From the NCBI RefSeq assembly GCF_035084215.1, contig NC_090362.1, positions 5,828,001 to 5,892,000 on the forward strand: 64,000 nucleotides of DNA, written 5' to 3'. The position numbers were made by a program, and so were the translations under genes. Below are positions 965 to 22,628 of this stretch, in pieces. Origin of the DNA: Heptranchias perlo. Its lineage: Eukaryota. A model generated the notes under the pieces. That model did not search any database, was not told the origin of the DNA, and saw only the letters and a program-made list of their open reading frames with translations. The first letter of the stretch is position 1. Each line of letters starts with the position of its first letter.

Positions 965-1370
965 TTTGTTGTTCAGTGTAACTTACTTGGTCCCAGTGAG
1001 AGAAGGTGCCACCCATACAAAATGGCCCAGTCGGGAATGGAGTCTGAACCTTGGTGGTTTAGTGTCCTTTAATATATATCTATTTTCCATGCTGATGTTG
1101 GAGGGGCACATCTGTATCGAATCGCTGGCAGTGTAGAGTAAGTTTACCTCAGTTTTCCCTTAATCTGCAGTGCAGGGAGGTGTCCATCTTGGTCCGGCCT
1201 CATTGTTTCCTATCGTCTAGGTCAAAAATGAACTTTGTCAGTACCTGAACTTGGACCTTTTGAACCTGAATTGTACAGAATTCCATCACCAATCCATGGG
1301 AGTTATTGTTATCACACGGCACGATTGATGTATTGGTGGGGAGAAAGTAATGGATTTGTCCAATTGTTAG

Positions 1371-1554
1371 GAATTCCAGCACCCTACCCTGAAGAGTCTG
1401 CAGCGAGATGACTACCTCTGGAGCCTTTCAAATACTCACCTGCTGGTCAAGTACCTGTACGCAGTGGAGGAGGGCAGCAATCGCCGAGTTGTGGAGCAAA
1501 TTATTCAGCAATTCAAGGAAAAGATACTTCCAAATTTGAGCAGGTTTCGAAAAA
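1371..1554 (+). CDS. HYKK: HYKK copy 1, third coding exon ([25 protein letters not shown]...RFRK)
   Basis: ttgttAG acceptor, GTAAGT donor, 184 bp; near-identical to 15115..15298 on the - strand; resembles the HYKK FHHP..LHR...W.L segment. Confidence 0.9.
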
Positions 1555-1754
1555 GTAAGTTTCCACCTCTCTTGGCCCTGAAGCCTACGGGGTAGAGATT
1601 GCTCTTGGACGACAGTGCAAAACGGGTGGTATTACCTGGGCTGCCCATTATATGCCCTGATTGGTATTCAGATCCTCTGCAGTCAATGGAATTGAATATC
1701 AGACGGGCGTATCAATGGTGGCCGATACGATTCACCCCATTTTGTATTACTGCG

Positions 1755-1975
1755 TTCTCCCCTGTGTCCTGAGCAACATTTATCCCTCAACCAACATCAC
1801 TAAAACAGTTTGATTGGTAATTTTTCTCATTGCTGTTTGTGGGATTTTGCTGAGTGCAAATTTGCGGCTACGTTTCCTACATTACAAGAGTGACCACACT
1901 TCAAAAGTACTGAAATGGCTGTGTAGTGCTTTGGGGTGTCCTGAGTTTGTGAAAGGGGCTATATAAATGCAATTT
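1755..1975 (+). mobile_element. Deu-domain SINE (SacSINE1/AmnSINE1-like), 5' part missing
   Basis: gtcctgagcaacatttatccctcaaccaacatcac...gtgaaaggggctatataaatgca matches the fuller copies at 30620-31035 and 11195-11590. Confidence 0.75.
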
Positions 1976-2571
1976 CTCTCTTTCCCTCTTTCTCATTTAG
2001 CAAGCCACATTGTTGTCAGGACATCCAGGAATAGGCAATGATTATCTGGTTGGATTACAATTGAAGGTTATAAGGATATGAAGTCACTTAAATAGTCGAA
2101 GCTAGTGGTCCAATTGACCAAGCTTTTGGTCACCTGTCCTAATATCTCCTTATGTGACTAAGTGTCAAATTTTGTCTCAGAACACTCCTGCTAAGTGTCT
2201 TGGAATGTTTTACCTCGGTAAAGGCGCTATGTAAATGCAGATTGTTGTTGTTCGGCCCATTTTGAACAGGGTAGAAACCGAGCAGATCTGGGCTCTGCCC
2301 CAAATTGCACCCCCCCCTTCCTTCTCCAGTGCAGGGGTTCCACCTGGCATCTGCCCTGGCTCCCCATTGGAATATCAGGGCCAAGGCATTGCTCACAGTG
2401 AGTGAGACGATACGGTAAAGTGTGACGGATAATGTGTGATGAAGCAAGTGTGATGCTTAAAGAAGTGCCTGCTATATACAAGACTTTTAATAGAGCTACA
2501 TATTAAATTATAATTTAAGGGTTGTCCATCGTGTATATGATAAAATATTGCAACGTTTGTGTCTTTCACAG

Positions 2572-3041
2572 GCATTAATCACGGAGACTTCAGCCATTCC
2601 AACATTCTAGTGAAACCCGTTCATTCATCGGCTGATCACTCCAACCCGACTCTCCCGCACCAGGAGTTGGAAATTTCTGGTATTCTGGACTTCAGTGACA
2701 TGAGTTATGGTTATTGTGTATATGATGTGGCCATATCCATAATGTATATGATGCTCGAGAACAACAATCCCATAAGTGTTGGGGGCCATGTTCTTGCAGG
2801 CTTTGAGAGTGTGACCCCTTTACTCCCGGAGGAGCGAGACGCTGTGTTTTTGCTGGTTCTTTGCAGGTTTTCTCAATCGCTGGTTATGGCAAGATATAAT
2901 ATTCTGCTTTATCCAGAAAATGAAGAGTACCTTCTGACCACAGGAAGAACTGGCTGGAAGCGTTTACACCAACTGTGGGGGCTTGGGAAAGAGGCAGTAG
3001 AAAAGGTTTGGTTTGAGACAGCCAATTCCTACTGCACCTGA
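2572..3041 (+). CDS. HYKK: HYKK copy 1, last coding exon ([13 protein letters not shown]...ILDFSD...YPENEEYLL...)
   Basis: cacAG acceptor at 2570-2571; APH/choline-kinase HGDxxxxN and DF motifs; stop at 3039-3041; AATAAA at 3112 and 3967. Upstream exons would lie outside the window. Confidence 0.92.
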
Positions 3042-4096
3042 TATAGGACCCATTGGTTGTGTGTTGGCTTCTAGGATAACAATGCCACTTTTAAGAGAGG
3101 AATCATTAAAAAATAAATCAACTAATATATCTGTTATCTGGAATTATGTAAGTGCTTTAATTTACTAATTATTTAGATCAATTTTTAAACCATTTTTCAC
3201 TCCCTTTATGTCTGCCTTTCTGATACTTTTCGAACTTCAGAAATACGAGTGCAGCCTTAGACCTCTCCACAACCACTGTTAGTCTCACTCCAGAATTTCC
3301 CTTGTCTGATCCCAAATGGTGTGTGCAACCATTGTGAGGTGAGACACTTGGCAATTGGTCTTCCAAATCATGGGATTAATCTCCTCAGCATCTTCCCAAC
3401 CACATACAGTCCCGGTTTATAATATGGGTGATTTTGTGCCAGATTTGATTGTGTAGCTAATTTGTCCAAACATCGAAGCTACAAATGCTACAACATTAAT
3501 AGGTCTGAAATTCCACAAAAATCTCCTCCCCTCACATCCTGATTTGCAATCACTCTGTGACGGTTTGTTTGAGCAATTTACATTGTATAGTTCAACAATT
3601 GAATCCAGGATCCAAGAATCTGCTGTGAATAAATGCTGCCACCGTAAATCCAAGGTATCTCAAGACTCTTACACTGCAGAACAGTTACTGGAGATCCTTT
3701 TTCTATATTGCTGCGTTTCCTACATTACAACAGTGACTGTACTTCAAAAGTATTTCACTGGCTGTGAAGCACTTTGGGACATCTTGTGGTCATGAAAGGT
3801 GCTATAAAAATGCAATTCTTTCCTTCTTTCTTGTCTAAACAGATATGGAAAGATAAGCTGCTACTTGTGTTACTGTCTGAGCCGCTGAAAGAGGCCACAA
3901 TTTTAAATATTCCAAAACATGATCTATGTCTGAATTTTGTGCTGAAACGTTTGTTGACCAGTTTGTAATAAAACAAACAACAGTACGCAGCTATCAAAAG
4001 TCTTGATTATTTTTCTCTTATAAAATCGGTAAGGTGGTTCCTTCAGTTGATAATTACAGGAAAGCAGGTGAACAGTTTCTGAATGAAGAGTGGGAT

Positions 4097-4981
4097 TGTA
4101 AACATCAGCTCAGGTCCCAGGGATTTACAAACAGACATTTTGTGGCCTTTTGTGTTTTAAGATTTTTCTGCTGCAAGAAACAGCAGCCCGTTTGAAAAGT
4201 GGGTGTGGCCCAGGGGTGTGAAAAGGACAAGGGATTCTGACAAGATCCCTAAGCCAATTAAGGGAAATGTCCAAGCGGACAGAGTTTCTCTGGGAACACA
4301 ATGAGCCAGGAAGGGCAACGCTTACGGTAATTGGCAGGAGATGGAGACACCATTGTTAATCAATGTTAAACCACTTAACCCACTATCAGCCATTACCACC
4401 ATTGCCTCGATGAGGTAACCCTGAAGGGTGGGAAACCAATCAAAATCCCAGACTGGTTGGAAGCAAAAGGATATCACTGTAAGATTACTGACTACACAAA
4501 AACATCAGGGCTGTGAAAACAGCACTGCAGGAAAAAGGAACGTTTAATTATTTTGGCGCGAAGAAGTTTGGAACTTTGGGGGGTACAAGAGGAGGCAGTT
4601 TTGGGACTTTTCTCTCTCTTGCTTCCTCGCCTGCTCTCATCTTCACTTGTCCTCACCTTCACAACAAGAACCGAGCACTCCGCCTGGGGTGGAGAGAAGA
4701 AACCACCACGAGAAGCAGAGCCTCGTTCTCCAACTGTATGGACGGAGCTCAAACTGAGACTTGAATACTGCGTCGGCGGTACGGAATCAGGAGACACGTT
4801 TTCTACAAGGGGGAGCAGCGAGAAAGTCAAGGGACAATCGGGGTGAGCATTGTCCAAGTCCACATCTTTAAGACCACCGGTATTGTGTCCTTGAGTCAAT
4901 TCTGTTCACCGTAATTCAGGTCGTCTAGAACTGTGTAAGGGGTGGGGGAGTGATTCGAACCACCAAGGCAAGCCACTTACA
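4097..4981. mobile_element. Solo LTR (885 bp) with 4-bp TSD GGAT
   Basis: TGTAA...TTACA termini; GGAT at 4093-4096 and 4982-4985; empty site in the duplicated arm near 9325-9335. Confidence 0.9.
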
Positions 4982-5214
4982 GGATATCCTGATGGGTCCT
5001 CCAGGAGGAAAGTATCCTTTGAATAAACTTGGCCGCACTGCCTTTCCCCTCCAGAACCCCCACACGATCTGGGCTTTCCGTTTCTGTCTTTGGAGGAACT
5101 GACAACTTTATCTTTACGAAGGTGAGGAGTAACCACAGCCAGATTGTGTATTGATTTCTTTTGGCGGGTCACGCCCAGATGATTTACGTTCCTCACACTT
5201 GCTCTGACACTAGA

Positions 5215-5545
5215 AAGCGCAGTGGTTGTGTTACTGGACTAATAATCCAGAGAACGTGAGTTAAAATCTCACCATGGCAGCTTGAGTATTTTAATTCAGT
5301 TAAAAAACTCGGAAATAAAAAGCTGGTATCAGTAAAAATGACCACGAAGCTGTCGGATTGTCGTAAAAACCCAACTGGTTCACTAATGTCCTTACCCGGT
5401 CTGGCCTATAGGTGACTCCAGTCCCACCACAATGTGGTTGACTCTTAACTGCCCTCTGAAGTGGCCTAGCAAGCAACCCAGTTCAGGGCACTAGAGATGG
5501 GCATTAAGTGCCATCCTTGCCAGCGATGCCCTGAGAATTAATTTT
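5215..5545 (+). mobile_element. tRNA-derived SINE (inverted duplicate at ~8770-9125)
   Basis: A/B-box-like head (gcgcagtgg...gagttaaaatc); its 3' tail resembles the 3' end of the LINE at 59095-60000. Confidence 0.65.
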
Positions 5546-7124
5546 CAAAAATCTCGTCCTTTTCCCTGATCTCCTGGTTCGGGTTATCATAAAATGATAT
5601 TGTCAGTGTTATCCGTAATCTCCTGGGCGATGGTCTTACCCCCACCTCGTCTCCCCTTTCCAAACGGATCAAATGTGCCGCAGTATCAAATGCTCACTGG
5701 ACTGGCTGGTTGTTGCTTCTTCAAGATCATGATATTACCATTGACCATTGGGCCCAACCTTCCGTTTTGGATTAACTCCTTTTTGTACCAGGGAAACCCC
5801 ATGAGCAGCCCCAACCTACGTTCTACATGAACTCCCCTCTCCTTTTTGCCCCTGGTGATGGTAAAACAAGTTATTCTCCACTCCTTACTAGTTCATGTCG
5901 ATGGCTCAAGTCTTTCTGTCGAGGGCTAGCCCTGATCTGGGTTTGGCTTGTACTTGTTTGGAACAGTGTACCATCCGGGTATACTGACGAGTCTTGTTAT
6001 TCTGATGTGCCCCATTCTTCCCAAGACGCTGCAGGAGCCCGGGGTCTTTGAGCTAGTCCCCTCTGATCCAGTCGTTACTGTTTCCCACCCCATGTGGGTT
6101 TGCGATAGCCCCACAGGTTACTTGTCCTTTTGACTAAGGAATAATTTCCGTGCATCTGAAGCTTTCCCCAATTGCTCCTCGGGTAATGTTTTGTTAAACT
6201 ACATTGTCAGATAAAGGGACTCACCAGTGGTGCTGCGTAAAGTTAAGGGACGCAGTAAATCCCGACCCCATCACACTGAAAATGTAACGGTAGAATACTC
6301 GGCACGCAAGGTGCTCGAAGTGGGGAGGGTTGGAATTTGGCATTTTTCGTGGCAGTGGTAAATGAGCCAGTGCAAATTTCCCTCCCTCAGACTTTTGACC
6401 TTGAGCAGGCTCCAAACCAGGATCCTGAATAGCGAGCACTTCTGGGCACGCTCAGGAAAGGACAAATAATCTGCTCGGGTTCTCCATATTCCCAAATGAA
6501 AGGGAAGTAATATCGATGGTAAAGTGGCACTGAAGAAGGGGAATCGGGGAGGAAGTCCTGTTACACCGAGTTACATCGAGTCCAGAGCACAGAAACAGGC
6601 CATTCGGCCCCACTGGTCTATGCCGGCATTTATACTCCACACAAGCCTCCTCCAACCCCTCTTCATCTAATCCTAACAAAATATCCTTCTATTCTTTTCT
6701 CCCTTTTGTGCTTAACTAGCTTGTCCTTAAATGCGTCTATGCTATTCGCCTCAACTACTCCATGTGGTAGCACGTTACTCCTCGTGTGGCTTGTACCAGT
6801 TCAGCTCCACGAGGAGATGCTATGGATGGTCCAAGGTGCACAGACATGTGAGAGTCGGTAAAGGTGGGCAGGTGTGTGGAACAATTGAGTCAAAATTTGT
6901 GGGAGGTACATCTTTGGGTAGCCAATCAGCTTGGGCTCTCTGCACAGAGGTCCAAACTCCAATTTGATAAGGGAGTGTGAGAAAATGATTGGCAAGTGGG
7001 AGATCAGGTGATGGTGTTGAAATTCACTGATGGACAGCATAGATTGTCCAAGAGATAATTAGGACCTTATTGTATAATGGATAAAATAAGTTCTTCTGTG
7101 TATAAGGTCCAAAACTTTGGGGCC

Positions 7125-7610: not shown

Positions 7611-7959
7611 ACAGGCGGACGCTGATGAACAGAAAGGTACAACCATGCCAATCAGCTGAAGCTATTTAAGACTGGGTCAGACTCGTAAGAAGTGTGAAGT
7701 CTGTTATTCGATGTATTCCTTGGCTCGACCAGGATTGTGTTGAGCTGATGCAGATTTCCCGAATGGAGAAATGGATCTCCCAGTGGGATCATAGCCTAGA
7801 GGAATTAGCTGTAGAAGAGATATTTACTGCAGACTGTATGCAGGATATTGCTGATAATTTATTTAAAAGAGACAATAAAAGGGCTTGAGGTGTTTGGAAG
7901 GGAAGTCGATCTGGTGCTTGAACAGACTCTGAGAGAACTGGTTAATGGACCGAGAGGAA

Positions 7960-8515
7960 GGGGTGAAATGTGCCTTGGGCGATCGGGCATCAGCTGCCCG
8001 TTTTACACCCGCCTGATTTTCTATTGGCCGTTTTGCACCCTCCTGAATTTCTATTGGCCGTTTTACACCTGCCTGATTTTCTATTGGCCGTTTTACACCT
8101 GCCTGATTTTCTATTGGCCGTTTAACACCTGCCCGATTTTCTATTGGCCGTTTTACACCTGCCTGATTTTCTACTGGCCGTTTTGCACCCTCCTGAATTT
8201 CTATTGGCCGTTTTACACCTGCCTGATTTTCTATTGGCCGTTTTACACCTGCCTGATTTTCTATTGGCCGTTTAACACCTGCCCGATTTTCTATTGGCCG
8301 TTTTACACCTGCCTGATTTTCTATTGGCCGTTTTACACCTGCCTGATTTTCTATTGGCCGTTTAACACCTGCCCGATTTTCTATTGGCCGTTTTACACCT
8401 GCCCGATTTTCTATTGGCCATTTTACACCTGCCTGATTTTCTATTGGCCGTTTTACACCCGCCTGATTTTCTAGCGCTGATTTTGCGCTCTGCCGTCCCA
8501 GACAAATTTCACCCC
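7960..8515. mobile_element. MITE (GGGGTGAAAT...ATTTCACCCC TIRs) with internal 30-bp minisatellite expansion
   Basis: Terminal inverted repeats at 7960 and 8515 enclose the tandem array. Confidence 0.7.
7998..8473. repeat. Minisatellite, 30-bp unit CCGTTTTACACCTGCCTGATTTTCTATTGG, ~16 copies
   Basis: Direct tandem repeat with variant units; it produces the spurious ORFs 7848..8474 and 7863..8657. Confidence 0.97.
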
Positions 8516-10385
8516 CAACAAAAGTGTTTATTGGATGGCAAGTTTCCTCCAGGGCCCATAAACTCAGATGAAATGAAAAGATCATCTGGTAATATTCAGG
8601 GGAGGGGAAACTGGACGCAAGGAAGTGTACAAGGCAGAAGCAGGAAAATTGCACCACAAGCTGAATTCCAGCACCATCGCCCAGGAGATTACAGATAACA
8701 CTGATGATCTCATTTTACAATAACCTTAACCAGGAGATCAGGAAAAAGGACGAGTTTTTTGAAAATTATTTCTCAGGATGTGGGCAGCGCTGGCAAGGCG
8801 GGCATTTAATGCCCATCTCTAATGTCCTGAACTGGGTTGCTTGCTAGGCCACGTTAGAGGGCAGTTAAGAGTCAACCACATTGTTGTGGGACTGGAGTCA
8901 CCGAAAGGCCAGACCGGGTAAGGATGGCAAGTTTCCTTATCTAAAGGACATTAGTGAACCAGTTGGGTTTTTACGACAATCCGACAGCTTCATGGTCATT
9001 TTTACTGATACCAGCTTTTTATTTCTGAGTTTTTTAACTGAATTAAAATGCTCAAGCTGCCATGGTGAGATTTTAACTCACGTTCTCTGGATTATTAGTC
9101 CAGTAACACAACCACTGCGCTTTCTAGTGTCAGAGCAAGTGTGAGGAACGTAAATCACCTGGGCGTGACCCGCCAAAAGAAATCAATACACAATCTGGCT
9201 GTGGTTACTCCTCAGCCTCGTAAAGATAAAATTGTCAGTTCCTCCAAAGACAGAAACGGAAAGCCCAGATCATGTGGCGGCTAAGTTTATTCAAAGGATA
9301 GTTTCCTCCTGGAGGACTCATCGGGATATCTCACTCTTCATTCAGAAACTGTTCACCTGCTTTCCTGTAATTATCAACTGAAGGAACCACCTTACTGATT
9401 TTATAAGAGAAAAATAATCAAGACTTTTGATAGCTGCGTACTGTTGTTTGTTTTATTAGAAACAAGTCAACGAACGTTTCAGCACAAAATTCAGACATAG
9501 ATCATGTTTTGGAATATTTAAAATTGTGGCCTCTTTCAGCGGCTCAGACAGTAACACAAGTAGCAGCTTATCTTTCCATATCTGTTTGGACAATAAAGAA
9601 AGAAAGAATTACATTTTTATAGCACCTTTCACGACCACAGGATGTCCCAAAGTGCTTCACAGCCAGTGAAATACTTTTGAAGTACAGTCACTGTTGTAAT
9701 GTAGGAAATGCAGCAATATAGAAAAAGGATCTCCAGTAACTGTTCTGCAGTGTAAGAGTCTTGAGATACCTTGGATTTACGGTGGCAGCATTTATTCACA
9801 GCAGATTCTTGGATCCTGGATTCAATTGTTGAACTATACAATGTAAATTGCTCAAACAAACCATCACAGAGTGATTGCAAATCAGGATGTGAAGGGAGGG
9901 GATTTTTGTGGAATTTCAGACCTATTAATGTTGTAGCATTTGTAGCTTCGATGTTTGGACAAATTAGCTACACAATCAAATCTGGCACAAAATCACCCAT
10001 AATATAAACCAGAACTGTATGTGGTTGGGAAGATGCTGAGGAGATTAATCCCATGATTTGGAAGACCAATTGCCAAGTGTCTCACCTCACAATGGTTGCA
10101 CACACCATTTGGGATCAGACAAGGGAAATTCTGGAGTGAGACTAACAGTGGTTGTGGAGAGGTCTAAGGCTGCACTCGTATTTCAGCTGAAGTTCGAAAA
10201 GTATCAGAAAGGCAGACATAAAGGGAGTGAAAAATGGGTTAAAAATTGATCTAAATAATTAGTAAATTAAAGCACTTATATAATTCCAGATAGCAGATAT
10301 ATTAGTTGATTTATTTTTTAATGATTCCTCTCTTAAAAGTGGCATTGTTATCCTAGAAGCCAACACACAACCAATGGGTCCTATA

Positions 10386-10855
10386 TCAGGTGCAGTAGGA
10401 ATTGGCTGTCTCAAACCAAACCTTTTCTACTGCCTCTTTCCCAAGCCCCCACAGTTGGTGTAAACGCTTCCAGCCAGTTCTTCCTGTGGTCAGAAGGTAC
10501 TCTTCATTTTCTGGATAAAGCAGAATATTATATCTTGCCATCACCAGCGATTGAGAAAACCTGCAAAGAACCAGCAAAAACACAGCGTCTCGCTCCTCCG
10601 GGAGTAAAGGGGTCACACTCTCAAAGCCTGCAAGAACATGGCCCCCAACACTTATGGGATTGTTGCTCTCGAGCATCATATACATTATGGATATGGCCAC
10701 GTCATATACACAATAACCATAACTCATGTCACTGAAGTCCAGAATACCAGAAATTTCCAACTCCTGGTGCGGGAGAGTCGGGTTGGAGTGATCAGCCGAT
10801 GAATGAACGGGTTTCACTAGAATGTTGGAATGGCTGAAGTCTCCGTGATTAATGC
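10386..10855 (-). CDS. HYKK: HYKK copy 2, last coding exon
   Basis: 470 bp; one amino-acid difference (N/S) seen versus 2572..3041. Confidence 0.92.
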
Positions 10856-13800
10856 CTGTTAAAGATACAAATGTTGCAATATTTTATCGTACACACTATG
10901 GACAACCCTTAAATTATAATTTAATATGTAGCTCTATTAAAAGTCTTGTATATAGCAGGCACTTCTTTAAGCATCACACTTGCGTCGTCACACATTATCC
11001 GTCACACTTTACCGTATCGTCTCACTCACTGTGAGCAATGCCACGGGAGTTCGGCTGGAAATACATTGAAAACCTTGGCCCTGATATTCCAATGGGGAGC
11101 CAGGGCAGATGCCAGGGGAACTCCTGCACTGGAGGGGAATTGGGGACGGAGCCCAGATTTCTACCCTGTTCAAAATGGGCCGAACAACAACAAATTGCAT
11201 TTATATAGCCCCTTTCACAAACTCAGGACACCCCAAAGTACTTCACAGCCATTTAAGAACTTTTGAAGTGTAGTTCATGGCCGCAAATTTGTGCACAGCA
11301 AGATCCCACCATCAGCAATGAGAAAAATGACCAATTAAACTATTTTAGTGAAGTTAGTTGAGGGATAAATGTTGCTCAGAACACTAGGGAGAGCTCCCCT
11401 GCTCTTCTGGATGGGATCTTTGATGTCCACCTGAGAGGGCAGACAGGACCTTGGTTTAACGTCTCATCCGAAGGACTCCATCAGTACTGCACTGTCAGCT
11501 GAGATACTGCACTCAGGTCCTGGAGTGGGGGTTGAATCCATGACCTTGTTAGTCAGAGGGAAAAGCTCTACCACTGAGCTAAAGCTGATAGTGAGCTTGG
11601 ACTGGAGTCTTGGGTAGACCAGACCAGGTAGGGGTGACAGGCTCCCATCAGCTTTTCTGGTGCCATCCCATAAATGACCAGATTTATGCCATTTAATTGC
11701 ACAATTTGCCATGGTGGAGTTTGAACTGGTGACCTCGGTTACTCGGTCAGCTCCTTAACCATTGGTAACTGGCAGTCTGCTTCACCCCTCCCCTACTGTG
11801 TACGGAAAGAAATCTTTCTAATCTCAAGTCTTGCTTGATGTTTGTTAATTCCATATTTCTGTCCTCTAGTTATGTCCTCGCAGCCCAAAGTTAAATAAAC
11901 TGCTTGCATCTGAATTACCCATTCGATTTCCAGTTTCAAGAGCTGGATCATGTCTCCTCTTCATCTTTTGCCCAATGAAAATAAGCTCAGACATGCGGAA
12001 ACATTTTTTTAATGCAGCGAGTTATTACGATCGGGAATGTGCTGCCTGAAAGGGCGGTGGAAGCAGATTTAATAGTAACTTTCAAAAGAGTATTGGATAA
12101 ATACTTGAAGGGAAAAAATTTACAGGGCTACGGGGAAAGAGCAGGGGAATGGGACTATTGGATAGCTCTTTCAAAGAGCCAGCACAGGCACGATGGGCCG
12201 AATGATCTCCTTCTGTGTTGTAACATACTACGATACTACGTGCGGTGACTCCAGTCTGATGTAGATTCTTAGTCTTAATCGCAGACTCCAAAGTACTGTC
12301 ACAAAAATCAAATCAACAAACGAGACAGCAACATTTCTGAGAAGTGCAAAAATAATAGGGCAGTAATCATAGAGGATTTCAACTACCCGAATATTAACTG
12401 GGATACAATCAGTGTGAAGGGTATAGAGGGCACAGAATTCTTCAATTGCATTCAGGAGAACTTTTTTAGCCAGTATTTAGCAAGCCCAACAAGGGTGGGG
12501 GGGCAGTTCTGGATTTAGTTTTAGGGAATGAAGTTGGGCAGGTGGAAGGAGTATCAGTGGGAGAGCATTTTGGTGGTAATGATCACAATTCAGTTAGATT
12601 TAGCATAGTTATGGAAAAGGACAAAGATAGAACAGGAGTAAAAGTTCTCAATTGGGGAAAGACCAATTTTACGAAGCTGGGAGGTGATTTAGCAAAAGTG
12701 GACTGGAAGCAGCTACTTGAAGGTAGAGCAGTGGGAGGCATTCACGGAGGAGATACTGAGGGTTCAGAGCAAATATGTTCCCACAGAGAAAAAGGGAGGG
12801 ACTCCCAAATCTAGAGCCCCTGGATGTCAAGGAGCATACAGGGTAGGATAAGGCAAAAAAGGGAAGCTTATGTCAGACACCGAGAGCTCAATACTGCAGA
12901 AAGCCTAGAGGAGTATAGAAAGTGCAGGGGTGAAATTAAAAAGGAAATTAGGAAAGCAAAGAGAGGGCATGAAAAAATACTGGCAAGTAAAATCAAGGAA
13001 AACCCAAAAATGTTTTATAAATACATAAAGAGCAAGAGTATAACTAGGGAAAGAGTAGGGCCTATTAGAGACCAAAAAGCAAACTTATGGTGGAGGCAGA
13101 AGACATGGGTATGGTTCTTAATGAATACTTTGCATCTGTCTTCACAAAAGAGGGGGGTGCAGAGATTGTAGTTAAGGAGGAGGAGTGTGAAGTATTGGAT
13201 GGGATAAACATAGTGAGAGAGGAAGTATTAGGGGGTTTAGCATCTTTGAAAGTAGATAAACCGCCAGGCCCGGATGAAATGTATCCCAGGCTGCTAAGAG
13301 AAGCAAGAGAGGAAATAGCGGAGGCTCTGACCATCATTTTCCAATCCTTCCTACAGGCGTGATGCCGGAGGATTGGAGGACTGCTAAAGTTGTGTCGTTG
13401 TTTTAAAAAGGGAGAAAGAGATAGACCGAGTAATTATAGGCCAATCAGCCTGACCTCGGAGGTGGGCAAATTGTTGGAATCGATTCTGAGGGACAGCATA
13501 AATCGTCATTTAGAAAGGCACGGGTTAATCAAGGACAGTCAGCATGGATTTGTTAAGGGAACGTCGTGTCTGACTTACTTGACTGAATTTTTTGAGGAGG
13601 TAACAAGGAGGGTCGATGAGGGAAACGCATTTGATGTAGTGTATGTAGATTTTAGCAAGGCTATTGCCAGGGTCCCACATGGCAGACTGGTCAAAAAAGT
13701 AAAAGCCCATGGAATCCATGGGAAAGTGGCTAGTTGGATCCAAAATTGGCTCAGTGGCAGGAAGCAAAGGGTAATGGTTGACGGGTGTTTTTGCGAATGG

Positions 13801-16800
13801 AAGGCTGTTTCCAGTGGGGTCCCGTAAGGCACGGTATTGGTCCCTTGTTTTTTGTGGTAGATATTAATGATTTGGACTTGAATGCGGGGGGCTTGATCAA
13901 GAAGTTTGCAGATGATAGTGTGGTTGATAGTGAGGAGGAAAGCTGTGGACTGCAGGAAGATACCAATGGACTGGTCAGGTGGGCAGAAAAGTGGCAAGTG
14001 GAATTCAATCCAGAAAAGTGTGAGATAATGCATTTGGGGAGGGCAAACAAGGCAAGGGAATACACAATAAATGGGAGAATACTGAGAGCTGTAGAGGAAC
14101 AAAGGGACCTTGGAATGCATGTCCACAAATCCCTGAAGGAAGTAGGACAGGTAGATAAGGTGGTTAAAAAGACATATGGGATGCTTTCCTTTATTAGCTG
14201 AGGCATAGAATATAAGAGCTGGGAGGTTATGTTAGAATTGTATAAAACATTGGTTAGGCCACAGCTTGAGTACTGCGTACAGTTCTGGTCACCACATTAC
14301 AGGAAAGATGTGATTGCACTAGAGAGGGAACAGAGGAGATTTACGAGAATGTTGCCAGGGCTGGAGAATTTTAGCTATGAGAAAAGATTGGATAGGCTGG
14401 GGTTGTTTTCTTTGGAACAGAGGAGGCTGAGGGGGGATTTAATTGAGGTGCATAAAATTATGAGGGGCCTAGATAGAATGGATAGGGAGGACCTATTTCC
14501 CTTAGCAGAGGGGTCAGTGATCAGGGGGCATAGATTTAAAGTAATTGTTTGAAGGATTAGAGGCGAGCTGAGGAGAAATTTTTTCACCCAGAGGGTGGTG
14601 GGGGTCTGGAACTCACTGCCTGAAAGGGTGGTAGGGGCAGAAACCCTCAACTCATTTAAAAAGTACATGGATGCGCACTTGAAGTGCTGTAACCTACAGG
14701 GCTACGGACCAATTGCTGGAAAGTGGGTTTAGGCTATGTAGCTCTTTTACGGCCGGCACGGACACAATGGGCGAATGGCCACCTTTTGTGCCGTAACTTT
14801 CTATGATTCTAAGAAGAAACGAATGACAACTTGGGGACAGTGAAGATTCCCTCTTGCTTTCTCCTGGCCTCATGTGGAAAGTGTTAAGATCTGTAGGGGT
14901 AGAAATTAATATTGGACTGTAATACAAAATGGGCGGAATCGTATCGGCCACCATTGATACGCCCGTCTGATATTCAATTCCATTGACTGCAGAGGGTCTG
15001 AATACCAAGCGGGGCGTATAATGGGCGGCCCAGGTAATACCACCCGTTTTGCACTGTCGTCCAAGAGCAATCTCTACCCCGTAGGCTTCAGGGCCAAGAG
15101 AGGTGGAAACTTACTTTTACGAAACCTGCTCAAATTTGGAAGTATCTTTTCCTTGAATTGCTGAATAATTTGCTCCACAACTTGGCGATTGCTGCCCTCC
15201 TCCACTGCGTACAGGTACTTGACCAGCAGGTGAGTATTTGAAAGGCTCCAGAGGTAGTCATCTCGCTGCAGACTCTTCAGGGTAGGGTGCTGGAATTCCT
15301 AACAATTGGACAAATCCATTACTTTCTCCCCACCAATACATCAATCGTGCCGTGTGATAACAATAACTCCCATGGATTGGTGATGGAATTCTGTACAATT
15401 CAGGTTCAAAAGGTCCAAGTTCAGGTACTGACAAAGTTCATTTTTGACCTAGACGATAGGAAACAATGAGGCTGGACCAAGATGGACACCTCCCTGCACT
15501 GCAGATTAAGGGAAAACTGAGGTAAACTTACTCTACACTGCTAGCGATTCGATACAGATGTGCCCCTCCAACATCAGCATGGAAAATGGATATATATTAA
15601 AGGACACTAAACCACCAAGGTTCAGACTCCATTCCCGACTGGGCCATTTTGTATGGGTGGCACCTTCTCTCACTGGGACCAAGGAAGTTACATTGAACAA
15701 CAAAGAAGACACATCTTCCTTATTGCCAAAGCTCTGGTTATAATTGCCAAACGCAGCTGTAAAATAGAAGAAAACGGTGCATATGAGGGGCAACTGGTCA
15801 CTTTCCACATACGTTAGGTTTTAAAATAAAAACCAGCTAAATTCGCATTGACCAAAACTTTCCAAAATTCAGCTATTGGTGTATTAATCTGAAGGGACCC
15901 AACCTAGATTATCAGACTTTCTGTTGTTTCATGCTGGGTATGACTCCTGTGATGCCTACAGACCATATATAAGGAAAGCTTTTTAAAGAATCTTGCCGTA
16001 ATTTATTTGGTGTTGTCAGGCTAAAGAAGCTCCAAAGCAGGTCTGGTTTGTTACGATCGGGGGATCTACGATCTGGTCTACATGAACAGACTGATCACAC
16101 TGGATCCACTGGTGTGCCGTGCGAGACCCTTTTAAAGGATAATTCTTGAGGCAAATTACACCGACTTACTTCAAGAACCTTGTCCATTTGAGCAAGAGTT
16201 CGGCCAGCTTTGTATAAGATCTGTGGGCCTGGTGGGATTTTGGCTAATGGAATTCCTGGAAGGTAGTTCAGTAACCGGACCATGTGGGTCTTATATTCTT
16301 GCCCACAATCTGTAAAATATAAGAGCAAAGTATTCTTGTTAAATTAGTTAGCTTAATCTTTTGGAAGTTAAACGATGCCAATAGATACTGATTTCTAATT
16401 AGTTATAGTGTTTACAGGGTTTATGCAAATGTGGACATTTATAAAAAGGTGACTTACAAACTTTAATGAGTGTGTGACTGGAGTCAACCAGAACCTGAAC
16501 CCAATGTACAATAATCAATAAATGATACTCACCAATCGTCTCCAATGACATAATCTTGCCATCAACGGTCGGGATTGTTGTAGGCGAGGGAAAACCTTTC
16601 TTGTTCAAAAATGTCATGATTCGTGTTTGTGCTTCAACCAAATCGGCATCTTGACTATCGACAGTGTTCAGCACTTTGAGGATGTAGCCATTACTGTGAT
16701 CTCCGGTCCCCTTGGTCTCAGATACCAGGATGTGGAAGTTCTGGTCAATATAACTGGGCAATGGTTGGACACTGGAGACCTTTAGATCGTACAGCTGTCC

Positions 16801-16869
16801 AACCAACTCAACAGCCTGGGCTTCACTCAGTGAGGGTTTGATGAGAACTGTTTTCTCTGTGGAAGACAT
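10386..16869 (-). CDS. HYKK: Hydroxylysine kinase, copy 2, complete: complement(join(10386..10855,15115..15298,16170..16309,16533..16869)), 376 aa
   Basis: Exons of 337+140+184+470 = 1131 nt with compatible phases and GT/AG sites; [19 protein letters not shown]...[10 protein letters not shown]...YILKVLN...VRLLNYLPG...HGDFSHSN...LDFSD; next to PSMA4 as in the known HYKK-PSMA4 synteny. Confidence 0.93.
11195..11590 (-). mobile_element. Deu-domain SINE in HYKK intron
   Basis: Reverse complement of the ggatgagacgttaaacc...agatcccat Deu core and of the tail. Confidence 0.75.
11990..12235 (+). mobile_element. CR1 LINE 3' fragment
   Basis: [14 protein letters not shown]...FKR.LD.YL...[12 protein letters not shown]. 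Confidence 0.85.
12345..14810 (+). mobile_element. CR1 LINE, degenerate ORF2 (endonuclease C-terminus, tether, RT) and 3' UTR
   Basis: Frameshifted ORFs 12542..14552 with [41 protein letters not shown] and LVRPQLEYC. Confidence 0.95.
14896..15080. mobile_element. MITE with GGGGTAGA...TCTACCCC TIRs and 3-bp TSD GTA (Harbinger-like)
   Basis: gta|GGGGTAGAAATT ... AATCTCTACCCC|gta; truncated counterpart at 1589-1750. Confidence 0.75.
15115..15298 (-). CDS. HYKK: HYKK copy 2, third coding exon
   Basis: 184 bp with AG/GTAAGT; R/Q difference versus copy 1. Confidence 0.9.
16170..16309 (-). CDS. HYKK: HYKK copy 2, second coding exon ([18 protein letters not shown]...KVLE)
   Basis: 140 bp, phase 1 to 0, AG/GTAAGT. 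Confidence 0.9.
16533..16869 (-). CDS. HYKK: HYKK copy 2, first coding exon
   Basis: ATG directly after a ttttcAG acceptor; GTGAGT donor; 337 bp. Confidence 0.9.
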
Positions 16870-17580
16870 CTGAAAAACATCAAAATAATGAAACCGATGA
16901 AATTAGGGAATGTGATGTTCTGACAAATGCAACTTATTCTTAACTCGCTCATACATAATCACTGCGTATCATTTACTGGCTGGCAGGTCATTTATCAGGA
17001 CCTCAGCTGGAGGGTGTAAAAAAGGACGCCCAGATGCAGCAGTTACAACAGCACTTACAAAAAATGCAACTATCGGCAGCCTGAAATATGGGACATGCCC
17101 GAGTAGGCCCAATGGGCCAGAATCAGATCACCTCAGAAGGGTAAGAGATATTCAACCAAGTGATGGTCCACCTTAACAGGTATGAGGGAAAATGGAAACC
17201 AAAATTTGAATTTAAAAAGCTGCAGCATTTCTTACGTTTAAAAGCCTCTTCTTTAAAGAATCTGTCTGTATGATATTGTTTTCGTTGTCGGCTCCACCCT
17301 CTTTTTGGTGTCGGCGCCTCCCTCTTCTTTCCACAGAGGTAAAAGCAAGTTTAACCCTCTGTGGTCTTGTCTTTTATGACAGGATTTTAAAGCATCCTTG
17401 CTGTGAGCGTATAAAAGATGTTCATTTCAAATTAAATATAAGGAAAACTTTTGTGCTTTACATTGGCACAAAGCATCGTTTTATTAATTTGGTCATGGCA
17501 AGTCATATATTATGCACTTGTCATGTAAGTAAATAAATAATGATATCAGATATTCACCAAGAGCTTTCCAAGGTTGGATC

Positions 17581-19699
17581 ATGAACATATTGGTGGCCTG
17601 TCGTGATGGGATGTGTCTTGTTCCTCGGGGAAGCCAAACACCTTCGGAACAACTGGGACTGTTTTGTCACGAGTTATACCACCAATGACACCAGGCCGTG
17701 GTCAACACGGGACTCTTTGGCACATGTACCCGCAGGAAAAGAGCTTCGATTGACATGTACGGGTATCGGCGAGGGAAAAGAACCAGCTACCATCAAGTGG
17801 TATCGTCTGAGTGCGAACACCAGTAAGGACAGTGACTTGGTGCCTTTTGGCATGCTCTATCTATGGGGGACAGTAAGGATACCTTTGCGTTCCCTAATGG
17901 GACATGGACAACTACAAGCTCTCTCAATTTCCCTCAGGTCTGGAAGCGACATGCCGACTGCTACAGGTGCCCATCCAGAGGAGAAACCAGGAGGCTGTCA
18001 TCCTGGTCCTTCTGCTTTAATGTAATCGAGAATGCAAAGTTGTCAGATGCAACCGCCCATTCAGCCTCTACTGGGTGCCCGCTTACGGACAAAGGTATGT
18101 TTTTGAAAACCAATGGTTTATTGGTTTTCAAAAACATATCAGACCCTATAGAATGAGGTGAGATTTGACATCTTCCCTGTTCTGTTTGATTTTTCAAAAG
18201 TTGCTCTGTTACCAGGTTTGTGGAATGAAACTTATGAGAAATTCTACCAGCAGATGTTGTGCAAGAAACTTAGACAGTTTATGGAGAGAAACTCAGGTCG
18301 GGACATAGACAAAGTTCCAAGGAATAACCCCACACCCCCCAGTAGACAGGAAAGAAAACGGGAAGTGGCTGAATGGTTGGATATAGGGGTTATAACAGGA
18401 ACGGCCGCTCGGAACAGGATAGACATAGAGAGTATGTTGGAACATGATGAAGCCGTGCGAAAGCAATTAAAAGGCATTATGAAAGGGGAGAATAGGATAG
18501 TGACAGGGTCATTGTATGAACAGCAACAAGTTTTAGTGTCTTTAAAGGAGATGGTCGACAACTTTCGACAGACTCAGGAAAAGGTTAATACAATGGTCAG
18601 TGACATGAAGACATCTAAGATTCAGATCGCCAAAGGAAATACGTGCAGCATGTACTGGGCGTTTATGCTGTCTCAGGAGCAAAAGGGATTGGAAAACATT
18701 GAGAGAAATCACATCCCTTCTTTTATAACAGATGAACAGCGAGATAAATGGACCGGTGAGAATGGAGGAAACCACAGTAATATCAGGCGCCTGGGATCTT
18801 TATACCCAGTGAGACACTCCTGTGAAGACGGATCCATGCCTTTCACCTGATCAGAAGCCTTCAGAGGTCATTAAGGCGGTGACTATAGGCATCCTTGAAG
18901 GTGACATACATAAAGAATTTGTCAACTACCCAAAGGTATTGACAAAGGATGGTGAAACCTGGGTGGCACCAGATTTAACTTGCTGTACTCAGATCAAGGG
19001 GACATGGATGTGTCAGTGCGATGTCACCCAGAATAGTATCCTGGCTTGTGGTTTCACCCTAGATGAGCACTCTCCCAACTGTACTGTTAGTATTAGAAGA
19101 TGGAAATCGGGACAGGCAAAGCACGGATACATGGGAAGAGGTCGCTACTGTGTGATGACATCAGACTTGACTTATCGCCATGGGAAACAGGAGAGCCCTG
19201 TACTAACACCATCATTGTGCTTTGCCCCTGAATTAGGTACGAGAGTTGTGAGTTCTGTCCTGATCCCAGTGAACATTTATAATGTTACGGAAATTCAGAT
19301 GGAAATCAGTTTAAGGGAAGAAGCTCAGAAGGCAATTATACAATTTGGACATCCGATTCCACCACTGTCACTGAATCTTAAAACTCTACTCAACCGGACG
19401 GTCACATCAGGGCATCACCTATTGACCTACAACAACAAAATGTGGCCTTAGAAATCGATATTGGACAGCTAGAGGAATCTAAATGGTGGGAAATAGTATA
19501 TAACGTAGGACAACATCCTTGGGCCAGAATTCTCTCACAGGTTTTAATCCTTTCTCAGTTTGTTCTGATTATAATTGTTATAATGTTTTGTGTAGTATTT
19601 TCAATGTATAAAAAGCTGAATACACAAACTTCTCTGTCCATCCGTGGACAAGAATGGTGGTACAACTATTGGTTATTTTTCAATGTGTATTGTGATTAG
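17581..19699 (+). pseudogene. Frameshifted retroviral env-like gene (signal peptide, Ig domain, basic cleavage site, fusion-peptide/heptad region, Cys-rich ectodomain, TM)
   Basis: Consecutive overlapping ORFs at 17603, 17863, 18158, 18822 and 19442; RQERKR|EVAEWLDIGVITGTAARNRIDIE; coiled-coil; C-terminal hydrophobic VLILSQFVLIIIVIMFCVVF; followed by PPT and LTRs. Confidence 0.75.
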
Positions 19700-19947
19700 T
19701 AATTATTTGGTATCGGTTGGGCGGGTCCTTATTGACAAATTGAAGCAATGTGTATATATACGTCTATGTGTGTTTATGTGAACATGATGATGATAAAATG
19801 TAAACCCAAGGTGATGTTGGGTGTTTTGGGGTTATTCTCACCCTATTGATCAGAGCAGATATCTGGTCCCCGGTCTAGCCAAGGAACACTTATACCTCAC
19901 GGTTCGGGGGTTCAGGAAAACGGGACTTATGCTAACGCCCCCGGTGA

Positions 19948-20924
19948 TGGATCACGTAGCCGAATAGCACAGAGAACACACAAACTCGGTGTTTGAATTG
20001 AATTGGAATGTTGGTTTTATTATACCGTCAACGCGAAGAAAATAACGATAAAAACGGTCCTACACAGTACGTTGAGTTACACACACCCACTACAGTACTT
20101 TATCCCGATAAACTAAGAGGTTGGTGGGGACCCTGGAGACACCCATCACACACACACACACACGTATGGTCGAGGCTCACCAATCCTTTGCACTTGCAGG
20201 TCTGGATGACCGGTTCTCTCACGTGGGGTTCGTTGGTTTCGCTGGAAGCTGCTCTCCTCCCTGGAGAGCTCGGGTGAAAAAAAAAGACGAGCAGGAACTA
20301 AGAGGAAGAGAGAGAGAGAGAGAGAGCTGGAAAAGAGATAAGAGCTAAGAGCAAGAACCAGAGACAGCAAACAAGAGCAAGAGAGCAAAACAAGAGAGCA
20401 AAACAAGAGAGAGAGAGGTTTCGAGCTTCCACTTATATACCCCTCTCTTACAATAGTTTTCGTCACTTAAATGAGGCACTTCCATGCCTGTTTAAACGGT
20501 CCTTAAGAATCTTTGATGGCTTTTGATGGTCTCTCATCATGTTGCAATTGCTTCTCTCGATGGGCCGTTGTTCTACGAATTCATTCCGATGGTCGAGCAC
20601 TTTCCACACAAGGCTCCCTTTTCATCCCACGTCCTAGGTGTCGATTGGTTGTGCATCAGAGCTGAGGCATGGCCCCGCCATGTCTGGATCAGTTGCCTCT
20701 CTCAATGGCCGACTGCCTCTCGAATTAGTGCTGATTGTTGACCACCTGCTGTAGGTTTTGCATTAAAACAGAGACATGTCTGAAGCAGTAATTCTCCCAC
20801 ATTCCACTGTGTGTGTTGTTGATTCGTCTGGTGACCTCTCACCTATCCTTCCATCTTAGGATTTTGGTCAATGGCCAAAGTTTTACATCCTCAGGGAAAA
20901 GGTGGAATTCCCAGAATTCTTACA
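19948..20924 (-). mobile_element. Solo LTR (977 bp) with 4-bp TSD GTGA, nested in the env element's 3' region
   Basis: The - strand begins TGTAAGAAT and ends CA; GTGA at 19944-19947 and 20925-20928; TATATAA near 20432-20438 and AATAAA near 20017 on the - strand. Confidence 0.75.
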
Positions 20925-20958
20925 GTGATCGTAGGTAAATATGACCCAGAGTGGGGTC

Positions 20959-21676
20959 TGTGAGACAAAGGGAGCCAACATTCCACAGGAAATGATAAGT
21001 CTGACATCAGGCAAAGTGATTGGGAAGATTGCAGAGACAATAGAAATGTGAATCAGACACACTGAAGACTAATTGTCAGAAACAGATAACAGAAGTCCCA
21101 AGGCATAATCAAAGGCTCAGGACATCGACACAGAATAATCATGTTACGTTAATTGCAAGAGCTTTGTTCAGACAATCAGGTAACCTTTATGATTGGCGTA
21201 CACAGGATGAGTCATCTTAAATATCTGCAGCTGAACAATCCAAATTAAGATTGTGAAACAAAAACAGGACAGGCTGCAGCCTGCCCACACAGAAAGATAA
21301 GGGCATGTCCCTCCCCCATAAACTAGGTAGAATTGACAACAGTTAACCTCATAGAAAAGGTATCTGACAAACAGTTAACACCATAGAATCGATATTCAAA
21401 AGATGTCTGAAACAATGGGCACCCTGGGGGGAAGATGCCCAGGGCAGATGACATCATGGGGCTAATGTCATTAAATTACTAGAAGCAAATATGCTTCAGA
21501 ATGATATAAGAACTGGCGCATCGTCCTATTAAAAGTTAGAAGCTTCTTGGGACACCGGAGGTTCACATATCCTACGAACCAGGTCTGATCATCCTGACAT
21601 CTCCTAGGGACAAGCAGACTGTACAATACTTGTTTATTTGATATGACTGCACCAGATACTTGCTGTATTTCCAACA
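20959..21676 (+). mobile_element. Probable 3' LTR of the env-bearing element
   Basis: Purine tract agagtgggg(tc) then TGTGAG...CCAACA; TATA-like GATATAAG near 21503. Confidence 0.5.
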
Positions 21677-21822
21677 AGTATGTTTATATTATGTGTGCTT
21701 ATGTAAACCCAATGTTGATAAAATGCAAACTCAAATTGATCTTAGGCAAGACCAAGAAGAAAGTTGAGGGATAAAGTGAAAATTGAACCAGAGAGGTTTC
21801 ACTCAGGTTCAAGAGGAGGGAC

Positions 21823-22628
21823 TGTAAGAATATGGTTTAAAACTAGGAATAGTCAAGTATCCCATCTTACATAGCTCGCATAGGGCTACCAAACATCTTA
21901 GCAAGAGGGTGGATATTGGAAGGGGCGGAGTCGTGTCTCGGTGTGTGAACAAAGACACTTTGTATTAGACAGAGAGTGCTGAAACTTCAGAACTATAAAA
22001 CATACAAAGTAAAGAGATGGCCGTAATCACGAAGTTATAATGTCAGAAGGGGGTCTACACCAGAACAAGAGATGTGGTTGCTAAGAAACCAACATTGGTG
22101 GGGCCCTGCAAGGCCAAAAAGGGGGGCTGTACTTAGATAAGGAAGGCCACACATTCCTCAAAGGAAGAAACAGCCTGTAAACAGAGATGAAGGCTGAGGT
22201 CATTAACTACGTTACGTAAAATAGCTTATCTTGAGTTGCTAACATAGCGTCAACACGGTGGGATGACTTATGACCAGGAGATAAGACCAGAGATGCTTAC
22301 ATGCAAAACAATGTGCCAAATAGTATAAAGGCAGGGTATGTTCCCTCTCAAAGGTTAGAGCTCTCAAGAGGACAGTCAGAAGTCCACTGCCCCAGGCAGC
22401 CACAGAGGTCAGATCTGATCAATCTGAGTCCACAAGCAAACCAAGTTATATTAATTGCTTGCCATTTAATGTAATCTGACAACTGTATTGTAATTATTAT
22501 ACTGTTGTTAGTCAATATATTAAAGCTTCTTGTTTAATAACTATTCATGTCAGTAGCATGCGGAAGTTATTGTTGAAGGATTAACAACCCGTTTGTTGCG
22601 AGACAGTAACAGGAAAAATCCGCCAACA
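21823..22628 (+). mobile_element. LTR preceded by polypurine tract
   Basis: AAGAGGAGGG(ac) PPT at 21811-21820; TGTAAGAAT...CCAACA; TATAAA near 22324; ATTAAA near 22518. Confidence 0.75.

Follow-up and report, generated by a model that had tools for sequence, protein, structure and literature searches.

The window analysed here is a 64,000-nucleotide stretch of Heptranchias perlo DNA (contig NC_090362.1, positions 5,828,001-5,892,000, forward strand), in which the remnant of a retroviral envelope (env) gene occupies positions 17582 to ~19670 of the plus strand. The remnant comprises five stop-to-stop pieces (17585-18025, 17836-18156, 18152-18850, 18813-19451, and 19382-19699), with frame changes near 17600 (signal peptide), ~17860 (immunoglobulin (Ig)-like domain), ~18150, ~18840, and ~19420. 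This copy is dead, broken, and 5'-truncated, and is without a 5' long terminal repeat (LTR), gag, most of pol, and the polypurine tract (PPT). An earlier sequence-only reading had described an env-like fossil with an N-terminal Ig domain. All the peptides it quoted were located in the window sequence; the WWPV of its signal-like stretch lies on the out-of-frame side, where other copies read M-x-x-L-V-A-V-V-L-G-C. It is probable that the window holds a broken copy of a shark endogenous retrovirus (ERV) of the snakehead retrovirus (SnRV) group, that its Env combined an Ig head with an F-type fusogen, and that a sister copy of this env has been domesticated.

The window element is a multi-copy shark ERV. 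A DNA search of the genome gave at least 57 matches to the window env family (a lower bound, with 40 of 278 candidates scored), the long ones at ~77-89% identity. All 30 loci fetched are broken, and their longest in-frame matches to the intact sister protein introduced below span 60-295 residues. Upstream of env, other family copies carry a 5' LTR, gag, protease, reverse transcriptase (RT), tether, second RNase H, and integrase (IN), and with a primer-binding site (PBS) and PPT they display the Retroviridae layout LTR-gag-pro-RT-tether-RNase H-IN-env-LTR. The family Gag has a heptad-rich (coiled-coil) N-terminus and one CCHC finger, and pol matches Pfam RVT_1 (E 2e-20, with YVDD), the RT_RNaseH tether (E 1.5e-13), RNase H (E 8e-13), and rve (E 2e-10). 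gag and pro share one frame; their junction is TGA in four of seven copies and a sense codon in three, which may reflect readthrough or CpG decay. The PBS is complementary to tRNA-Asn of this genome, and the tRNA-Asn 3' pattern has 172 exact matches on G000:C23 and several unplaced contigs, many of them along one contig. LTR-LTR identities of 78-95%, measured on fragments, show the age of the family.

A protein search with a natural piece of the family identified intact relatives in Chiloscyllium punctatum and Scyliorhinus torazame (44-45% identity), and their protein cluster also includes one from Heterodontus francisci. The three shark proteins (XP_067889054.1, XP_072333160.1, and GCC29952.1) are annotated as 'uncharacterized'. 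Within the H. perlo genome, one of 81 matches is both full-length and stop-free. This intact sister env (L051:1477-3756, minus strand; G000:C6:50325191-50327470) has 759 codons, and the protein (P0004) is 35-50% identical to the F-like part of the window remnant. Its predicted structure has a mean pLDDT (predicted local distance difference test) of 65, rising to 77-96 in the beta domains and falling to ~30 in the N-terminal head. Foldseek searches of the PDB match the model to the F proteins of respiratory syncytial virus (RSV), human parainfluenza virus 3, henipavirus, and human metapneumovirus (hMPV), the best being post-fusion RSV F (E 3e-10), and to foamy virus Env (E 2e-7). Alignment to hMPV F with VIA gives a Z score of 11.0 and a root-mean-square deviation of 5.8 over 281 residues, and overall the VIA Z scores are 10-11 over ~280 residues. 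In BFVD the model matches many F-like viral glycoproteins; SnRV is not among the best 50 structure matches there. The Env models of the walleye epsilonretroviruses WEHV-1 and WDSV also match (E 5e-9 and 1e-8), a hint of F-like folds in further fish retroviruses.

The elements of an F-like class I fusogen, namely an F2 strand and helix, cleavage site, fusion peptide, heptad repeats A and B, domains I-III (DI-DIII), and a transmembrane (TM) helix, are all present in the model of the intact sister protein and, by homology, in the window copy. The counterpart of the F2-like part of the window is a stretch at residues ~200-290 of that protein that superposes on hMPV, RSV, and measles F2, and the Cys-rich beta domains are 50% identical to residues 472-664. 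In the heptad A region the model has long helices at residues 311-371 and 374-406. The window cleavage site, RQERKR, is followed by EVAEWLDIGVITGTAARNRIDIE; with Glu at P4 it is polybasic, yet it is no strict R-x-K/R-R site. No immunosuppressive domain (ISD)-like motif, CX6CC, or CX5-7C occurs in any of the five window env pieces, so that the absence of gamma-type motifs noted in the sequence-only reading is borne out; the hallmarks of a gamma-type Env (ISD, CX6CC in the TM subunit, and CXXC in the surface subunit) are not found here. Searched by sequence, the F-like part has no match in PDB or Pfam. Weighing against an F-like assignment, Pfam Fusion_gly is unmatched and the model reaches global TM-scores of just 0.2-0.3 (by query) to F, low values that a monomer model of a refolding trimer would be expected to give. 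The predicted fold of the env fusogen is nevertheless almost certainly F-like, and the suggestion of a non-gamma, F-protein-like envelope is upheld by the matches of the sister model to RSV, hMPV, and paramyxovirus F and to foamy Env.

The head that precedes the F-like part contains a B-strand Cys, a Trp 14 residues further on, and an F strand of the form H-A-D-C-Y-x-C; where the copy is unbroken, the two Cys are ~70 residues apart. The features of an Ig V-like domain (B Cys, C-strand Trp, and F-strand x-x-C at a spacing of 65-75 residues, with a profile match) are all present, at moderate scores. Pfam matches the first window piece to Ig_2 (E 0.002), Ig_3 (E 0.003), and ig (E 0.04), all below the curated cut-offs, and gives no relevant match for the other four; Ig_3 is also matched by 6 of 26 natural pieces at E<=0.1 (best E 8.5e-4). 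A profile of the Ig_3-matching pieces searched against the PDB places domain 3 of CSF1R at the top (E 0.03), and 8 of 10 matches are Ig domains. When frog and skate heads are added, the 15-row profile finds 651 PDB sequences at E<=1 (best E 1.5e-4), of which the best 60 are all antibody, nanobody, or V-NAR V domains. In profile-profile comparison with 30 host I-set domains of this genome, three of four alignments score above all 40 column shuffles and reversals. The heads of the two shark families (window and sister) are homologous (hhalign probability 96-97%), and the UniRef name of the Chiloscyllium protein is 'Ig-like domain-containing'.

Several observations count against an Ig assignment. 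Every Pfam Ig match is below its curated cut-off, and the four intact full-length proteins give none. The sister-family profile alone lies within its shuffles (1 of 40 reached it), and 3 of the 15 profile members match an unrelated domain of unknown function. Profile-profile searches found no significant alignment between frog N-terminal domains and the heads of the window family. The head, at pLDDT ~30 in the model of the whole protein, gives a seven-stranded, all-beta model of pLDDT 53 when folded alone; the best Z score of that model (5.7) is to unrelated beta sandwiches, and Foldseek returned no match for it at E<0.001. The missing Ig match of so poorly predicted a model is no evidence against an Ig fold. 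On the sequence patterns and profiles, an Ig V-type N-terminal domain is highly probable, and the proposal of an N-terminal Ig domain integral to env stands on profiles and on co-linearity across the family (below), with no support from the predicted fold. Capture from a host is plausible; no donor gene was identified, the match to CSF1R domain 3 having an E of 0.03.

A doubtful though possible alternative is that the head is an old viral beta sandwich that resembles Ig and is not host-derived. The weak, sub-cut-off profile scores, the missing donor, and the lack of a clear fold match would agree with this, as would the occurrence of IgV-like receptor-binding domains (RBDs) of unknown origin in gamma-type Env (10.1101/2024.03.17.585361). 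However, the shark head keeps the B Cys, C Trp, and F x-x-C at V-set spacing, whereas the gamma-type RBD-C, as described in that source, is without the B-F disulfide; heads also differ or are absent among close relatives, which fits repeated gain.

The intact sister env lies within a provirus that is itself decayed: it gives no gag match, its pol is split, its RT reads YVNN instead of YVDD, and all that is left of its 5' LTR is a 204-nt remnant. Its age is apparent from pol, at 83-87% identity to dead copies, and from the LTR remnant, at 89% to the 3' LTR. Ten sister copies at ~87% DNA identity contain 2-7 stops and 0-14 frameshifting indels each. The pairwise ratio of nonsynonymous to synonymous divergence (dN/dS) is 0.24-0.41 between the intact and the dead copies (10 pairs), and has a median of 0.51 (range 0.31-0.84) among the dead copies (45 pairs); dN is lower in the intact-dead pairs (0.05-0.09 versus 0.08-0.13), and dS is not. 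The intact proteins of this genome, Heterodontus, Scyliorhinus, and Chiloscyllium are 85-91% identical, with 85% in the Ig region (77 of 103 columns invariant), 95% in heptad B, and 60% in the tail. An intact open reading frame (ORF) in a dead provirus is thus accompanied by signs of selection, as expected of a co-opted env, and by these comparisons the sister env is under purifying selection.

Contigs of another shark, from runs labelled 'RNA?' by guess (none of the runs listed is recorded as RNA), carry nearly the whole ORF at ~95% identity, with no indel in two long pieces; two further runs (X2 and X4), which gave short, low-depth, gapped pieces, were left out. Third codon positions hold 32 of 52 differences (p 3e-5; the 52 are those listed of ~115). 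One contig from another run of that study departs from the provirus precisely at a CAG acceptor, which ends 2 nt ahead of the ATG, while the contig of the first run ends two bases further and has 80 unaligned letters. Apparently this is the junction left by splicing of an env mRNA; its upstream exon did not map within the 5.8 kb covered upstream and would lie beyond them.

It is likely, on this sequence evidence, that the sister env has been domesticated by the host. Against this, both junction-bearing runs come from one study and are RNA by guess, the 52 differences are a subset, identity is the sole basis for treating the four intact genes as orthologues, and the protein collection has only three annotated records, fewer than expected if every galeomorph had kept the gene. 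A chance survivor or a recently spread virus is the unlikely alternative. Few annotated orthologues were found and identity does not establish a shared position across species; retroviruses of this clade are reported to switch hosts often (PMC6001957), and in Mantella a related env is present in many intact copies. Yet the provirus of the intact gene is old and dead, sister copies average ~11 breaks, so that a break-free copy would arise by chance at ~1e-5 per copy (a Poisson estimate), and differences from the other shark are mostly at third positions.

In the literature searched, beyond which lie subscription papers, the SnRV genome paper, and candidate supplements, no report of this shark gene was found. 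The two chondrichthyan env screens of 2026 (10.64898/2026.05.06.723177, PMC12813294) relied on gamma-type queries with ISD/CKS17 and CX5-7C filters. Such filters would drop this env, so that what the two screens conclude on env capture in sharks covers gamma-type genes only. Avian Ovex1 is described as a conserved SnRV-related ERV whose env-like ORF of 873/874 residues is without ISD and CX6CC (PMC2717909). In the ESM Atlas the Chiloscyllium protein has no named match and falls beside one chordate cluster (874 residues, 0.82) with the length of zebra finch Ovex1 ORF3, which is a lead only.

The parent lineage was placed by RT. The best PDB match is a foamy virus (65.9 bits), ahead of murine leukemia virus (46) and Ty3 (34). 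Over 144 residues, identities counted by hand are ~69 to SnRV, ~48 to foamy virus (7ksf), and ~40 to Loki-Str, the SnRV and Loki sequences being taken from the RT alignment in the supplement of PMC7947760 and the foamy sequence from the PDB match. The motif LPQGFHNS resembles LPQGFHAS of SnRV, whereas the Loki RTs of that supplement have (C/M/L/T)PFG(Y/L)xN. The nearest database relatives of the RT, at 45-58%, are frog and coelacanth pol proteins that are nameless or automatically named NYNRIN-like, and a search of IMG/VR gave no relative. The Gag agrees with SnRV, which is described as having a zinc finger and an N-terminal coiled coil, unlike spumaviruses (PMC2717909), and SnRV-like ERVs are reported from the elephant shark (CmiERV lineage I; PMC4422223). 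That the placement is a hand count and not a tree weighs against it; even so, a snakehead-retrovirus-like parent is very likely from the RT and Gag comparisons.

It is improbable that the element is instead a lokiretrovirus, which would be a first for chondrichthyans, or that it belongs to the foamy-like clade of sharks and frogs. The F-like Env, the dual RNase H, and the NYNRIN-like names of relatives suit a lokiretrovirus, the first two being features that other retroviruses also have and hence not diagnostic. Foamy-like ERVs (FLERVs) would suit the best PDB match of the RT and the tRNA-Asn PBS, as in NviFLERV, and shark and frog FLERVs, their env unknown, are reported to cluster (PMC5512871). 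However, by hand comparison the RT has the SnRV-like motif in place of the PFG signature borne by all Loki RTs in the supplement, and the CCHC finger and coiled coil of Gag are SnRV-like and unlike spumaviruses (PMC2717909), with RT nearer SnRV in a comparison outside which the CmiFLERV and XtrFLERV sequences lie, so that the group of this element may overlap with their clade. Among the parents offered by the sequence-only reading, a non-loki element of snakehead-retrovirus type therefore fits, and the lokiretrovirus does not.

The Ig-like segment belongs to env itself and is no insert, since in 22 of 29 other copies a single DNA alignment runs from it to the cleavage site. Of the remaining seven, three span from slightly inside or have two adjoining start pieces, two are split, and two are without the 5' part. 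Two copies have natural frames running from the B strand into the F2-like region. That the segment is a separate insertion, a refuting possibility raised with the original proposal, or a chance motif in one decayed copy is hardly credible: the window motif is assembled across a frame change, but the segment is co-linear in the other copies, shares one frame with F2 in natural ones, and is homologous to the corresponding region of the intact proteins (hhalign probability 96-97%).

The domain is at the same time exchangeable. A 20-row tree of the TM subunit makes sisters of the headless P0008 and P0007 (support 100/100); the head of P0007 is V-set-like (Pfam E 0.045) and has none of the usual cysteines, and the Mustelus env protein has a different head. 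Since the head differs or is absent between sister envs, it occupies a swappable slot, which by analogy suggests a resemblance to the receptor-binding module of gamma-type Env; the Ig head is rather more likely than otherwise to be an attachment module. Named distant relatives among the 40 listed come from Pelodytes, Xenopus, Mantella, Bombina, Mustelus, and Rhinoraja, and share the F-like core. Mantella aurantiaca (cluster P0009) has 16 near-identical env records of this kind and Bombina bombina (P0037) has three, from which the lineage appears to have been recently active in frogs.

Ig-fold RBDs, one of them captured from SIRP, have been described on gamma/alpha-type Env (10.1101/2024.03.17.585361), and in a crocodilian ERV env is reported to be replaced by nectin3 (PMC4299795). 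In the literature searched, subscription papers and the SnRV genome paper aside, no Ig-headed F-type retroviral env was found. The remark that no env of this architecture had been described consequently needs narrowing, since IgV RBDs are known for gamma/alpha-type Env.

The features of the remnant and its flanks are collected in Table I. The N-terminal segment is inferred to be a signal peptide from its position and hydrophobicity. To the left of 16977 the window has no sequence in common with other family copies. The sequence-only reading had placed a PPT and LTR directly after the TM helix; this is not the junction of the element itself, whose PPT is deleted, and an unrelated solo LTR lies behind env. 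One further copy of that solo LTR, at 89.5% identity, occurs in L047.

Table I. Env remnant and flanking features (positions of the window)
Feature	Position	Strand	Remarks
Integrase C-terminal remnant, 5' edge of provirus	16977-17210	+	Common to 10-11 of 29 other copies, which run upstream into integrase
pol-env spacer	17211-17581	+	Lacks ~390 nt at 17210/17211 that most other copies have
Start codon and putative signal peptide	17582-17640	+	Frame change near start; in-frame versions at 6 other loci
Probable Ig V-like domain	17720-18030	+	Split by frame change at ~17860; Pfam, PDB-profile, and profile-profile matches
F2-like part of surface subunit (strand, then long helix)	18075-18343	+	Broken at ~18150
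Polybasic cleavage site RQERKR	18344-18361	+	RKRR/RRRR at equivalent place in four intact proteins
Predicted fusion peptide and heptad repeat A	18362-18720	+	Aligns to residues 291-410 of intact protein
Cys-rich beta domains, predicted equivalent of F DI-DIII	18720-19330	+	Frame change and short deletion at ~18840
Heptad repeat B, TM helix (~19523-19610), short tail	19330-19670	+	Frame change at ~19420
Solo LTR of unrelated element, 1110 nt	19815-20924	-	TG..CA; 4-bp target duplication GTGA; TATA and AATAAA on minus strand
3' LTR of the element	20940-21675	+	Matches 5' and 3' LTRs of other copies; PPT deleted just ahead
Second, partial copy of pre-LTR region and LTR start	21690-21876	+	Downstream of the 3' LTR

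Beside the ERV, the minus strand carries, at 16399-16902 and 10386-10883, exons of a kinase gene of the APH family (APH E 6e-6), which we take to be hydroxylysine kinase. The first coding exon of the kinase starts at a splice acceptor, so that the ERV remnant probably lies antisense within the first intron of the gene. An inverted duplication (965-5634 versus 8673-15704, 97-98% identity) takes in part of the kinase gene, and positions 7905-8563 are a tandem array of 30-nt units with one open frame per strand.

In a functional Env of this kind, the signal peptide would be followed by the Ig head at the tip of the spike, the F2-like strand and helix, and the polybasic cleavage site, and then by the fusion peptide, heptad A, the Cys-rich beta domains, heptad B, and the membrane anchor. 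F proteins are known to refold into a six-helix bundle when triggered through a receptor. Here, the Ig head would bind a cell-surface partner, and this binding, after cleavage, would trigger the F-type refolding. The sister copy was likely domesticated in an ancestor of galeomorph sharks. It keeps the cleavage site, fusion peptide, heptads, anchor, and head, and would most probably act at the cell surface, where it would either block a receptor against related viruses or fuse cells; an immune-decoy role may also be considered. The chances are about even that the wider picture holds, in which snakehead-like retroviruses of sharks and frogs combine an F-type fusogen with swappable, host-derived Ig heads, and galeomorphs domesticated one such env before their orders split.

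If so, a third, widespread clade would join foamy viruses and lokiretroviruses in having F-type envelopes, in support of an F-like fusogen deep in retroviral history, and the fusogen would find its cells by an exchangeable Ig head with no separate attachment protein. There would also be a host gene derived from an F-type env that is invisible to syncytin-style screens. The window copy is one of many fossils, and its value lies in its architecture and in pointing to the likely domesticated gene. That gene offers an unbroken natural protein for structural and receptor work, and is a candidate domesticated env in sharks, egg-laying ones included.

F proteins are not known to have an N-terminal Ig domain, paramyxoviruses use a separate attachment protein, and foamy Env has a large RBD of its own. 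The shark env shares its predicted F2/F1-like fold with foamy Env (PDB entries 8rm0 and 8rm1) and with pneumovirus and paramyxovirus F (3rki, 7sem, and 1ztm), at sequence identities of 8-16%. Lokiretroviruses are described as having the same F-like layout of signal peptide, basic cleavage site, fusion peptide, coiled coil, and TM (PMC7947760) and have the dual RNase H; the shark element differs in RT signature, and its env leaves Pfam Fusion_gly unmatched. The available parts of that paper make no mention of an immunoglobulin domain or of sharks, and Callorhinchus and Rhincodon, which were in its screen, are not marked there as carriers. SnRV and SnRV-like ERVs (clade Huo; PMC6001957) have the closest RT by hand count (~69/144). 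They also share the one-zinc-finger Gag that begins with a coiled coil and the common frame of gag and pro, and ERVs of the group are known from chondrichthyans.

The nearest parallels to the Ig head are the IgV RBDs found on gamma-type Env and the RBD, similar to SIRP, of Env-Dbi/Env-Per (10.1101/2024.03.17.585361), likewise N-terminal, exchangeable Ig V-type domains; those are mounted on gamma/alpha-type fusogens of mammals, whereas the shark head is mounted on an F-like fusogen and has no donor gene. As a gene, the sister env resembles syncytins, percomORF/Percom-env (PMC12813294), and the shark syncytin-like candidates (10.64898/2026.05.06.723177) in being an env that is intact, apparently spliced, and under purifying selection inside a decayed provirus. 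In contrast to the shark and fish candidates, whose screens require motifs absent here in their usual form, it is, like ORF3 of avian Ovex1 (PMC2717909), without ISD and CX6CC and, in its case probably, SnRV-related, and its conservation spans three named shark orders in addition to this genome.

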